Positions 34,233 through 35,594 of a stretch of DNA of 64,000 nt are shown piece by piece. Within the stretch, counting starts at the first letter, position 1. Each line of letters begins with the position of its first letter. Position numbers and translations under genes: made by a program. The notes below the pieces were generated by a model, which was given only the letters and a program-made list of their open reading frames with translations, was not told the origin of the DNA and did no database searches. The DNA lies in sequence record MN715356. One strand, given 5' to 3'. The DNA is from Escherichia phage vB_EcoP_EcoN5.

Positions 34233-35594
34233 TTAGTTATTTGTTTCCATGTCAAAAGAGATTCCACGACCCGCTTCATCGGCAAACCGAACTGTACGGG
34301 TTTGAGGTTCTAATACTTCAGGGTTGTTAGCAACAAAGCGATCAGCGAGACTGCGACTGACGGTCTCAGCAAGTTCCTCATGAGAAGGAATATCAAGACT
34401 GCCTACCACATCTTGGGTCACGCCTTCATCAGTCCACACAGCTCTAACAGGTGCGTTGATATCACCAGCAGCAAAACCCTGACCAGAGAACTGGTGACGG
34501 CTAACAGTCAAACCATTTGGTCGACCATTAGAACGTCTAGACAACCACTGCTCAAACGAATCGCTTGTGATACCAAGGGCTTCTTCAAAAGATGTTCTAC
34601 GAGTAGGGCTTACTCTTCGTAACTCTTGTGCTCGACGCATTGCAGGGGCTACAAACACCCCTTCAATTGCATTGTGCCGATTAGGTTCATCTTCTCGACC
34701 AAGCAGATCACCGCCTGTGTTAGTCGTTAAATTTGTTAACCCTTCAGACCAATACGCATAAATTTGACCAGACCCGTGAACGCTTGACATTAACAGAATC
34801 TCTTCATAAGGGATTCCAAAGAATAGACTCATGTCTCGGTTAACACAATATTGAGCACTTGTCGTATCCTCAATAAGAGCAACCTGACCTCGTTCGTTGA
34901 CCAGTTGGCTAACTGGTTGAGGTGTGGGAAGATATCGAGTTTGGGCCATGTATTGATGTGCAGCTGCTGGAGAGGAAAATCTCAACACTTGCGAGTTAGG
35001 CCACTTCTTGTGAACATATCTGATTTCACGACTAGAAACAACCACTGGACAAGGGGCGGTCATAGCCAAGTATCCGTGAGAAGTCATGAATAAGTTGTCA
35101 AGAGTCATCGCACCACGGCACATCATAGGAAAATTATCCAATACCTCTTCAATAGAAGTAGGATAATTAAACATGAATTGGATACGAACCCCATTCCACT
35201 GAAACTCAATAATATCAGTGAACGTTAATTGAGAACTCCCAGCATAGGATTCGTTTGTAGCTTCAGCAAGAAGGGATGCATATTCAATATCTTGTGACTC
35301 TAGCCATTCCTTCACATTACTTTCAATCTCTCTTCCAAGAGCTTGCCAACGATCAGTTGGGACGAAAGTATTTTGAGTTCTTGGTGTTTGTCCTCTGACA
35401 ATAAAGATATCAATGTCATGTGGAGCCATGTTATTAAGTACAGCATCTCGAACAGCCCCACCAGTAATGATGGGACAGATACCGTCTGGAACCAAGTTGT
35501 TATTAATCAACTGTTCAATGAAGTTACGACCAACAGTGATATCAGGTTGTTGAGCAACCTTATCTTCAATTTGGTTAATCGGGATAACAATCAT
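34233..35594 (-). CDS. class II nucleotidyltransferase, CCA-adding-enzyme / poly(A)-polymerase-like head domain with divergent C-terminal region
   Basis: 'ITGGAVRDAVLN....HDIDIFIV' (GGxVRD ... DxD); track ORF 34233-35651, start placed at Met 'MIVIPINQ'. Confidence 0.5.
   Translation of the reverse strand: MIVIPINQIEDKVAQQPDITVGRNFIEQLINNNLVPDGICPIITGGAVRDAVLNNMAPHDIDIFIVRGQTPRTQNTFVPTDRWQALGREIESNVKEWLESQDIEYASLLAEATNESYAGSSQLTFTDIIEFQWNGVRIQFMFNYPTSIEEVLDNFPMMCRGAMTLDNLFMTSHGYLAMTAPCPVVVSSREIRYVHKKWPNSQVLRFSSPAAAHQYMAQTRYLPTPQPVSQLVNERGQVALIEDTTSAQYCVNRDMSLFFGIPYEEILLMSSVHGSGQIYAYWSEGLTNLTTNTGGDLLGREDEPNRHNAIEGVFVAPAMRRAQELRRVSPTRRTSFEEALGITSDSFEQWLSRRSNGRPNGLTVSRHQFSGQGFAAGDINAPVRAVWTDEGVTQDVVGSLDIPSHEELAETVSRSLADRFVANNPEVLEPQTRTVRFADEAGRGISFDMETNN

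Follow-up and report, generated by a model that had tools for sequence, protein, structure and literature searches.

The window analysed here is the whole stretch of 64,000 nucleotides from Escherichia phage vB_EcoP_EcoN5 (MN715356), which is a Kuravirus, a phiEco32/SU10-like phage of E. coli. Translation of the window confirmed a real ORF of 453 aa on the minus strand at 34233-35594, which the initial annotation had singled out, without naming a strand, for a head signature, GGAVRD...DIDI, of class II tRNA nucleotidyltransferases and poly(A) polymerases; alignment with homologs also confirmed the signature. The nucleotidyltransferase (NTase) gene, its parts and its neighbours are as follows.

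36144..37934, minus strand: T7 gp4-type primase/helicase, first gene of the conserved block (Bas91 annotation; DnaB_C and Toprim in relatives)
35596..36150, minus strand: family A DNA polymerase 3'-5' exonuclease subunit, upstream neighbour (Pfam DNA_pol_A_exo1, E 1e-8)
34233..35594, minus strand: whole NTase ORF, 453 aa and stop (ATG at 35594, stop at 34233-34235)
35115..35594, minus strand: Pol-beta nucleotidyltransferase head, class II (CCA/PAP)-like, aa 1-160
35403..35462, minus strand: motif A, GGAVRD...(P)HDIDIF, with metal-binding D60 and D62, aa 45-64 (invariant columns, Cca alignment)
35166..35222, minus strand: beta-hairpin with D127, I128 and Q139, aa 125-143 (secondary structure of the model and column counts)
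34950..35114, minus strand: family-conserved extension, aa 161-215 (conserved across 31 relatives; pLDDT above 90)
34725..34949, minus strand: helical subdomain, aa 216-290 (helices 209-220, 247-259 and 263-270; pLDDT 73-93)
34350..34724, minus strand: variable, indel-rich and probably disordered linker, aa 291-415 (ortholog indels, pLDDT, composition, dN/dS)
34236..34349, minus strand: C-terminal motif RFVANNPEVLEPQTRTVRFADEAGRGISFD, aa 416-453 (conserved within Kuravirus, ortholog alignment)
33669..34223, minus strand: dCTP deaminase, downstream neighbour (Pfam DCD, E 1.3e-31)

The ATG at 35594 was favoured as the start because all compared homologs begin with MIVIP (6/6 orthologs translated from phage records and 17/17 aligned database homologs). 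A longer reading from a GTG, to 35651, was rejected; it would run into the upstream exonuclease gene, and the homolog starts disagree with it. The orthologous gene was found by nucleotide search in 68 phage records at 88-94% identity, many of which already label it "nucleotidyltransferase", and the protein matched the profile of PHROG 12715 over its full length (E 3.3e-258; aa 1-453 on profile positions 1-457). The gene is already annotated and placed in a PHROG family, of which the initial annotation was not aware. The dN/dS was 0.15-0.2 overall and 0.06-0.17 in the core, which showed that the gene is under purifying selection. In the proteomics of SU10, the protein was detected with one peptide (PMC4281155).

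A scan of the surroundings of the gene for promoters and terminators gave no more sites than shuffled sequence did, so no internal regulatory element is supported. NCBIfam and PADLOC searches gave no matches, and the precomputed Pfam label PF26128 on many database homologs was not reproduced with Pfam at E <= 10, with whole proteins or fragments. A sequence search of the PDB with the single protein matched only aq_1974, in the tail and at chance level (E 0.42). In the literature, we found no experimental work on the Kuravirus NTase family or on the related NTases of phrog_1614.

The head carries the catalytic signature. In the translation, GGAVRD spans aa 45-50 and DIDI spans aa 60-63, and this motif A aligns to that of E. 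coli Cca and to CCA enzymes in the PDB. Across 32 sequences, with homologs at 21-34% identity, G45, G46, R49, D50, D60, D62, F64, Y117, I128, Q139, P156, Y193 and K197 were invariant, and residue 127 was D or E in every one. An AF2 run with Kuravirus orthologs alone (18 sequences, at least 81% identity) gave a pLDDT of 33 and was discarded; after the addition of relatives at 21-34% identity the value rose to 87, and the model of aa 1-300 had a pLDDT of 86.9 and a pTM of 0.83. In a Foldseek search of the PDB with this model, all 40 best matches were class II enzymes. The features that define the Pol-beta superfamily were found, i.e., the core fold, hG[GS] before a helix, a strand with [DE]x[DE], and a putative third carboxylate on a neighbouring strand. 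The model has a Pol-beta fold, and class II CCA/PAP heads are its nearest matches. The initial annotation had staked its assignment on such a fold and on conserved active-site Asp residues; both were borne out, with D60 and D62 unchanged in all 32 homologs, the most distant of them at 21% identity. By Pol-beta topology rather than by model coordinates, D127 would be the third catalytic carboxylate.

The HMM search for a PolyA_pol head that the initial annotation proposed was less clear-cut. The Pfam PolyA_pol head (PF01743) matches aa 43-127 and scores 20.1 bits with the whole protein and 22.7 bits with aa 1-160 alone, just below the gathering score of 23 bits, which 0/32 family members reached; E was <= 0.01 in 8/32. 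Taken together, the Kuravirus NTase is predicted to be an active but non-canonical nucleotidyltransferase. The acidic core (net charge -9 to -15) was considered as an argument against RNA binding and dropped, since Cca is also acidic (-6 overall, head -7).

The part beyond the head had been described as one divergent C-terminal region of about 330 aa. Its divergence from the CCA-enzyme body held, and the region proved not to be a single unit but four: the extension (161-215), the helical subdomain (216-290), the linker (291-415) and the C-terminal motif (416-453). In the extension, helix 188-197 carries R189, D/E190, Y193, K196 and K197, and P199 is kept in 29/32 sequences. The helical subdomain is poorly conserved beyond the E. 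coli phage genera, and the alignment of distant homologs decays past about aa 215. The linker has indels among orthologs and a dN/dS of 0.24-0.37, contains a short predicted helix (405-423), and is missing from homologs of 274-320 aa. With a pLDDT of 38 at residues 290-300 and 62% disorder-promoting residues in aa 216-453, the tail (aa 291-453) is probably disordered. Synonymous divergence in the C-terminal motif was unusually low (dS 0.04-0.12). An embedded nucleotide-level element at the 3' end was considered for this and rejected, as the sliding identity profile resembles ordinary mosaic variation; an Rfam search of the 3' region of the gene found nothing.

The tails of T7 gp4 and gp2.5 end in an aromatic residue. 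The C-terminus of the helicase of this phage is ...DGASPW, and a terminal F, W or Y was found in 9/27 distant NTase relatives, where about 2.5 were expected (p = 6e-4). The Kuravirus NTase tail itself ends in ...SFDMETNN, without a terminal aromatic residue.

The NTase family is small and restricted to phages. Only 31 relatives came out of an exhaustive search across 1.84 billion representative proteins, with a common core of aa 1 to about 215, and a word-indexed homolog search with a diverse alignment added four more distant proteins and no others. The genes around the NTase are tightly packed: the exonuclease stop codon lies 1 nt ahead of the NTase ATG (0-18 nt across related loci), and the dCTP deaminase begins 9 nt past the NTase stop. 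The order primase/helicase, exonuclease subunit, NTase, dCTP deaminase was kept in every relative with readable context, including Kuravirus, the Nieuwekanaalvirus-like Bas89, the Suseptimavirus-like Bas86 and metagenomic phage contigs of 42-90 kb, whose NTases are only 22-33% identical. These results showed that the NTase gene is a fixed part of a replication and nucleotide-metabolism block, a setting that the initial annotation had left out of account.

Head-only CCA-enzyme-like NTases are widespread in podophage replication modules, in Kuravirus and relatives and in phiKMV-, T7- and Fri1-like phages. The closest relatives of the family are those of phrog_1614, small "PolyA_pol head" NTases of about 170-230 aa from Autographiviridae and other podophages, such as gp16 of Pseudomonas phage LKD16/phiKMV and the "tRNA nucleotidyltransferase" of Pectobacterium phage PP47/Q19. 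Both families are stand-alone class II-like heads, and phrog_1614 is encoded beside a T7-type helicase in the replication module, like the NTase in its block; the gene of LKD16 gp16 (E 9.5e-40 against phrog_1614) stands right after the helicase and before the ligase. The Kuravirus NTase differs in having its own conserved extension (161-215), the helical subdomain and a tail, about 160 aa long, in the E. coli phages; its gene also follows that of a separate PolA exonuclease subunit and precedes the dCTP deaminase gene. The NTase matched the phrog_1614 profile significantly but partially, over aa 34-155 only (E 7e-8); five relatives gave similar results, and matches of the family to phrog_1614 had E 1e-5 to 4e-10. 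Structural matches in BFVD to phrog_1614-type heads had TMt 0.55-0.63, and single-sequence hhalign of the family against LKD16 gp16 aligned motif A only, with no identity detectable elsewhere. This pattern fits phrog_1614 as a sister family rather than as a family containing the NTase. The stand-alone bacterial CCA-head NP_344798.1 of S. pneumoniae (PDB 2LA3) was a much weaker structural match and has no replication context, and TENT5/FAM46, TUTases, GLD-2 and Pol X polymerases are eukaryotic, lack GGxVRD and have a different second domain (PAP-associated or thumb).

The NTase was then compared with class II tRNA nucleotidyltransferases and PAP I, namely E. coli Cca and PcnB, the B. stearothermophilus CCA enzyme (1MIV) and the A- and CC-adding enzymes of A. 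aeolicus. Motif A of these enzymes, GGxVRD(x)n DxD, is present. Motif B (RRD), the ribose 2'-OH discrimination element of class II enzymes, follows the catalytic hairpin on a helix and lies in E. coli Cca within DDLKRRDLTINALA; a column comparison with Cca found no counterpart in the NTase family. The putatively equivalent NTase helix, matched by topology and by comparing the sequences without gaps, reads ...L-x-x-[F/M]-P156-x-M-C-R, with an invariant P and without RRD. In the neck of class II enzymes, motif D (EDxxR) is the protein template for CTP and ATP; Cca carries GEDPLR, whereas no ED..R column is conserved in the alignment of the NTase family. The NTase lacks the helical neck, body and tail domains, which bind the tRNA acceptor/T-arm in class II, as well as the HD domain of Cca; relative to class II enzymes it has an insertion (aa 101-124) between the head helix and the catalytic hairpin, and its C-terminal 290 residues are unrelated to them. 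Only about 143-165 of the 300 modelled residues superposed on class II enzymes in the fold searches, and when the family was compared with E. coli Cca in hhalign, motif A alone aligned, in line with the earlier impression that the rest of the protein is unlike a CCA-enzyme body. Lacking the EDxxR protein template as well as the body and tail that measure the tRNA, the NTase is, as judged from its sequence, no true CCA-adding enzyme, and it is unlikely to add CCA in the canonical way.

These differences bear directly on the possibility that the NTase truly repairs the 3' ends of tRNAs by adding CCA, CC or A, and so would mend acceptor ends damaged by host nucleases or toxins in infection. The solved structures nearest in fold are without exception tRNA CCA/CC/A-adding enzymes and PAP I, and motif A (GGAVRD) differs very little from the Cca motif. 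In the HMM alignment, Y117, which lies in a loop behind the head helix, pairs with a Tyr that is conserved in the flexible-loop region of class II enzymes. Related small NTases of phages commonly carry the label tRNA nucleotidyltransferase (PMC7693777), and several entries in GenBank imply such a role. However, the motifs with which class II enzymes choose and template CTP and ATP and the domains that bind the acceptor/T-arm are those found missing above, an invariant F/M-P156 falls, in the ungapped pairing, where Cca has RRD, and the PolyA_pol gathering score was never reached. The neighbours belong to replication and dNTP metabolism and are not RNA-repair genes (ligase, kinase-phosphatase). 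The initial annotation had drawn support from the phage tRNA-Arg; this tRNA is there, but it is the only one of the phage and encodes its own CCA, and the host has Cca. Its proposal that the NTase repairs or extends tRNA 3' ends or tails other RNAs draws on the class II ancestry, and motifs B and D, body and tail are missing; tailing of RNA is still conceivable. We consider tRNA repair unlikely, though less so than the other alternatives to our favoured reading.

Our favoured reading, held tentatively and at slightly less than even confidence, is that the gene encodes a replication-module NTase of Gordonclarkvirinae-type phages, which has an intact Pol-beta head from the class II lineage and acts near the replisome on 3' ends. 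The head (aa 1-160) would descend from the class II tRNA-nucleotidyltransferase/poly(A) polymerase lineage and be catalytically intact. It is joined to residues 161-290, which form the extension and helical subdomain specific to the family, and in the genera of E. coli phages the long flexible tail (291-453) follows. The NTP-Mg2+ would be held by GG/RD (45-50), D60, D62 and D/E127, and the helix with R189, D/E190, Y193, K196 and K197 would probably complete the nucleotide pocket. One or more NMPs may then be moved, without a nucleic-acid template, onto the 3'-OH of a polynucleotide end. The loss of motif B would leave the choice between NTP and dNTP open.

Rather than serving tRNA maturation in general, the NTase would work at the phage replisome or close to it, on primers, DNA ends or RNA 3' ends. 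Its fixed place between the PolA exonuclease subunit and the dCTP deaminase, together with the flexible, aromatic-ended tails of many relatives, points to such a role; an association with the replisome is suggested by gene order in very compact genomes and by tail composition. In T7-like phages, accessory and anti-defence genes also cluster in the helicase-polymerase interval, so that position by itself is no proof of a role in replication. To our knowledge, class II heads act on RNA, not DNA. It is rather improbable that the NTase is, more narrowly, a replisome-tethered enzyme of DNA ends or primers that serves re-ligation processing or DNA/dNTP modification and underlies the broad restriction resistance of Gordonclarkvirinae, with the phrog_1614 NTases beside helicase and ligase in phiKMV-like phages acting alike.

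A different substrate class is also conceivable. The NTase may nucleotidylate a protein or small molecule (AMPylation, UMPylation, or a signalling nucleotide made or consumed) as a host-takeover or anti-defence factor, which we regard as quite unlikely. The PADLOC models for NTases of anti-phage defence and counter-defence (CD-NTase, MenT/AbiEii, MNT) include none that the protein matches.

The NTase and the adjacent dCTP deaminase may instead modify the phage DNA or the dNTP pool covalently and so give the RM resistance of Gordonclarkvirinae. The BASEL-2 paper reported that these phages strongly resist RM although no modification or inhibitor is known, and suggested the conserved dCTP deaminase/NTase pair (PMC11990801). 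The adjacency of the two genes is invariant even at 22-33% NTase identity, and the loss of the ribose-discriminating motif B would suit dNTP or DNA substrates. However, no modification has been demonstrated for Gordonclarkvirinae phages, the phage has ThyX and thioredoxin, so that the dCTP deaminase is explained simply as dTTP supply, and the sister family phrog_1614 is found without a neighbouring dCTP deaminase, e.g., in LKD16. Moreover, we know of no DNA-hypermodification pathway that uses a class II-type Pol-beta NTase. This explanation appears improbable, to much the same degree as the tethered DNA-end enzyme above.

Handling of DNA ends in a phage NHEJ-type break repair, where the NTase would add or fill in nucleotides ahead of ligation, which would confer tolerance of restriction or CRISPR cuts, is more doubtful still. 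A preprint credits the ligase with the effect, and the NTase is neither tested nor named there; the Kuravirus "DNA ligase" is only a 118-aa ORF (phrog_6466) that does not lie beside the NTase, which itself has no DNA-binding 8-kDa or thumb domain. Finally, the tight gene coupling with the exonuclease subunit and the long tether-like tail would also suit a structural or scaffolding replisome subunit that is catalytically irrelevant and merely keeps the NTase fold, but the metal- and nucleotide-binding signature residues are all invariant in very divergent homologs, which is not expected of a pseudo-enzyme and makes this highly improbable.

A Kuravirus NTase that is predicted to be catalytically intact and yet unable to work like a CCA-adding enzyme corrects a misleading annotation. 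If the NTase simply tails RNA, it would be an ordinary accessory enzyme. If its acceptor is DNA or a primer, or if it adds to the nuclease resistance of these therapeutic-candidate phages, this would be a new activity for the lineage, and the DNA-end or primer reading, if true, would be the first DNA-directed role for a head of the class II CCA-enzyme type.

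The NTase, read in the initial annotation as a CCA-adding-enzyme-like nucleotidyltransferase, was found where that annotation had placed it:

34233-35594, minus strand: NTase ORF, 453 aa

Only one base lies between the upstream ORF's stop codon and the NTase ATG. A longer form starting at GTG was rejected, since it overlaps the upstream ORF and all orthologs that were aligned or translated begin with MIVIP. The phage is a Kuravirus, a prolate E. coli podophage of the phiEco32/SU10 type, and 68 phage records contained the gene (88-94% nucleotide identity), many of them labelling it "nucleotidyltransferase". 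The match of the protein to PHROG 12715 was full-length (E 3e-258), and one peptide of the SU10 ortholog was detected in a proteomics study (PMC4281155). The dN/dS, calculated pairwise against six orthologs, was 0.15-0.2 overall and 0.06-0.17 over the first 215 codons. The records, the peptide and the dN/dS indicate a real, expressed and constrained gene, whose existence and generic label were public beforehand. Synonymous divergence was unusually low at the 3' end of the gene: the dS of the last 38 codons (34236-34349, minus strand) was 0.04-0.12 compared with 0.3-1.1 elsewhere. At the other end, the exonuclease/NTase junction, including the gene's first ~90 nt (about 35505-35594), showed ~99% nucleotide identity. 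Recombination mosaicism is one possible cause and an embedded signal at the nucleotide level another; Rfam gave no match at these stretches.

The family proved to be small. Among the 5.8 billion proteins covered by a word-indexed search, only Kuravirus orthologs matched, and exhaustive HMMER comparison with 1.84 billion cluster representatives retrieved no more than 31 proteins, none of which was a canonical CCA-adding enzyme. NCBIfam and PADLOC searches with the NTase gave no matches. The Pfam PolyA_pol head model covered aa 43-127, scoring 20.1 bits on the whole protein and 22.7 bits when only aa 1-160 were scanned, just below the gathering score of 23; E <= 0.01 was reached by only 8 of the 32 family members and the gathering threshold by none. 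PF26128, the precomputed Pfam label on most orthologs (P0003, P0004, P0010 and others), was not reproduced when hmmscan was run at E <= 10 against the Pfam copy used. The core common to the relatives runs from aa 1 to about 215, and many of them, at just 274-320 aa, are without the long tail.

GGAVRD and DIDI, the N-terminal signature recognized at first reading, were located at aa 45-50 and 60-63. In the alignment of 32 sequences (21-34% identity to the query), G45, G46, R49, D50, D60, D62, F64, Y117, I128, Q139, P156, Y193 and K197 were invariant, and residue 127 was D or E throughout. Conservation of the active-site Asp residues had been set beforehand as a refutation test, and both D60 and D62 withstood it. 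As judged from the alignment, this pattern points to an active enzyme rather than a pseudo-enzyme. The protein was divided as follows:

aa 1-160: head
aa 101-124: head insertion, between long helix 80-100 and hairpin 125-143
aa 161-215: conserved extension, with helix 188-197 (R189, D/E190, Y193, K196, K197)
aa 216-290: helical subdomain, conserved in E. coli phage genera only
aa 291-415: variable linker, indel-rich and rich in S, T, G, N and R
aa 416-453: C-terminal motif, conserved within Kuravirus

The hairpin contains D/E127, I128 and Q139, and the invariant Y117 is borne by a low-confidence loop (113-118) inside the insertion. Helix 188-197 probably completes the nucleotide pocket. The linker is probably disordered, with moderate constraint (dN/dS 0.24-0.37), and its short predicted helix (...SHEELAETV...) resembles T(L/M)EEVR helices that other long relatives carry in their tails.

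A model based on the shallow Kuravirus alignment had a pLDDT of 33; once distant relatives were added, aa 1-300 could be modelled with confidence (pLDDT 86.9, pTM 0.83). The first 40 Foldseek matches in the PDB were all class II enzymes, in agreement with the Pol-beta-type fold proposed for the head. The fold alignments spanned only 143-165 residues with query-normalised TM-scores <= 0.41, which restricts the class II likeness to the head. In the profile comparison with E. coli Cca, 23 columns of motif A aligned and no others; the remainder is thus as unlike a CCA-enzyme body as had been supposed. In class II enzymes, motif B serves ribose discrimination and motif D is the protein template for CTP and ATP. 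The NTase has no equivalent of Cca motif B (DDLKRRDLTINALA) or of motif D (GEDPLR). The helix after the catalytic hairpin (SIEEVLDNFPMMCRGAM) was taken as the topological equivalent of the motif B helix, and ungapped pairing places F/M155 and the invariant P156 opposite the RRD of Cca. Moreover, class II enzymes have a neck, body and tail, whereas the NTase lacks all three. These results indicate that it cannot function as a canonical CCA-adding enzyme; it fails each feature of membership tested apart from motif A. The phage carries a single tRNA gene:

53434-53509, minus strand: tRNA-Arg(TCT), the sole tRNA and sole Rfam match in the window

This gene encodes its own 3' CCA (...GGGTGC-A-CCA), so de novo CCA synthesis is needless for it. 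Genuine tRNA CCA repair, the best placed of the rival explanations, is unlikely.

The gene neighbourhood points to replication. A T7 gp4-type primase/helicase, the 3'-5' exonuclease subunit of a family A polymerase, the NTase and a dCTP deaminase stood in this order in every relative with readable context, namely Kuravirus, Bas89, Bas86, Logan contigs (NTases of 21-22% identity in the multiple alignment, 29-30% by local BLASTP) and IMG/VR contigs of 82-90 kb (29-33%); the neighbours were checked with Pfam. The distance from exonuclease stop to NTase start was 0-18 nt across relatives. In the related phage Bas91, the gene is flanked by a "DNA polymerase exonuclease subunit" and a "dCTP deaminase". 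Promoter and terminator scans within the block gave nothing above shuffled sequence, so co-transcription is likely. Other features were observed around it:

35596-36150, minus strand: exonuclease subunit, 184 aa, matching Pfam DNA_pol_A_exo1
23294-25138, minus strand: polymerase ORF, 614 aa, ~10 kb from its exonuclease subunit, a split common to all distant relatives
33176-33700, minus strand: HNH-type homing-endonuclease ORF, 174 aa, overlapping the 3' end of the dCTP deaminase (33669-34223)
about 38154-47000, minus strand: cluster upstream of the block, conserved in distant relatives (loci L004 and L005), with gamma-glutamyl cyclotransferase, RimK-like ATP-grasp, class II glutamine amidotransferase, Amidoligase_2 and COOH-NH2 ligase genes
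28860-29216, minus strand: 118-aa ORF matching phrog_6466 "DNA ligase" (E 2.5e-42)

The HNH gene is present at this site in Bas89 and absent from Bas91 and Bas86, and it fits the homing-endonuclease insertions noted at the dCTP deaminase locus (BASEL-2 paper, PMC11990801). At 118 aa, the last ORF is apparently below the size of a full ATP- or NAD-dependent ligase, and may be mislabelled, or else a fragment or an accessory subunit.

Among predicted viral structures, the model matched many "PolyA_pol head" proteins of 167-230 aa over their whole length (TMt 0.55-0.63), from Autographiviridae and other podophages. One of them is from Pseudomonas phage LKD16:

4704-5303 of locus L007: gp16, an NTase directly after the helicase, overlapping its gene end, and abutting ligase gp17

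It was assigned to phrog_1614 (E 9.5e-40), which the query and five scanned relatives also matched over the head (1e-5 to 4e-10). A like gene of Pectobacterium phages, between helicase and DNA polymerase, was named tRNA nucleotidyltransferase by modelling alone (PMC7693777). The structure matches, phrog_1614 matches and helicase-side position indicate that the Kuravirus NTase is an enlarged, divergent sister of the widespread head-only NTases accompanying T7-type replication genes.

An aromatic residue (F, W or Y) ended 9 of 27 distant homologs (p = 6e-4), namely P0047, P0048, P0054, P0056, P0058, P0060, P0063, P0064 and P0067, with endings such as ...WQW, ...WDW, ...YDF, ...FNF and ...WTF; the window primase/helicase (36144-37934) ends in ...DGASPW. 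In T7, gp4 and gp2.5 dock on the polymerase through aromatic C-terminal tails. The likeness may offer a lead, but the C-terminus of the Kuravirus NTase itself is not aromatic.

The NTase thus has an intact Pol-beta active-site signature and class II ancestry, has lost all CCA-specific elements, and is a core gene of a replication/dNTP block. We tentatively favor a template-independent polynucleotide 3'-end nucleotidyltransferase of the replication module, a reading we hold at somewhat below even chances. It would transfer NMP to a polynucleotide 3'-OH in a Mg2+-dependent manner, and possibly dNMP, since motif B is lost; the family-specific extension would contact nucleotide and acceptor, and the flexible tail may serve as a tether. 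Ranking after CCA repair, nucleotidylation of a protein or small molecule is doubtful. Modification of DNA or dNTPs tied to the adjoining dCTP deaminase, which the BASEL-2 paper suggested for the strong, unexplained RM resistance of this phage group (PMC11990801), is very slightly more doubtful. DNA-end processing in break repair is more improbable than these; the lead comes from a 2026 preprint on ligase-dependent, scar-forming break repair in phiKMV-like phages, which implicates the operon holding the phrog_1614 NTase and credits the repair to its ligase (bioRxiv 10.64898/2026.09.21.753257). A non-catalytic scaffold, at odds with the invariant residues, is very improbable.

The observation itself is not new, as the gene, family and head-domain annotation were already in databases and literature. 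The analysis adds the exclusion from CCA-adding enzymes on every tested feature except motif A, the recognition of a very small family confined to phages, with invariable synteny in the replication module, and its sister relationship to phrog_1614. The substrate may prove to be DNA, or to have a link with nuclease tolerance.
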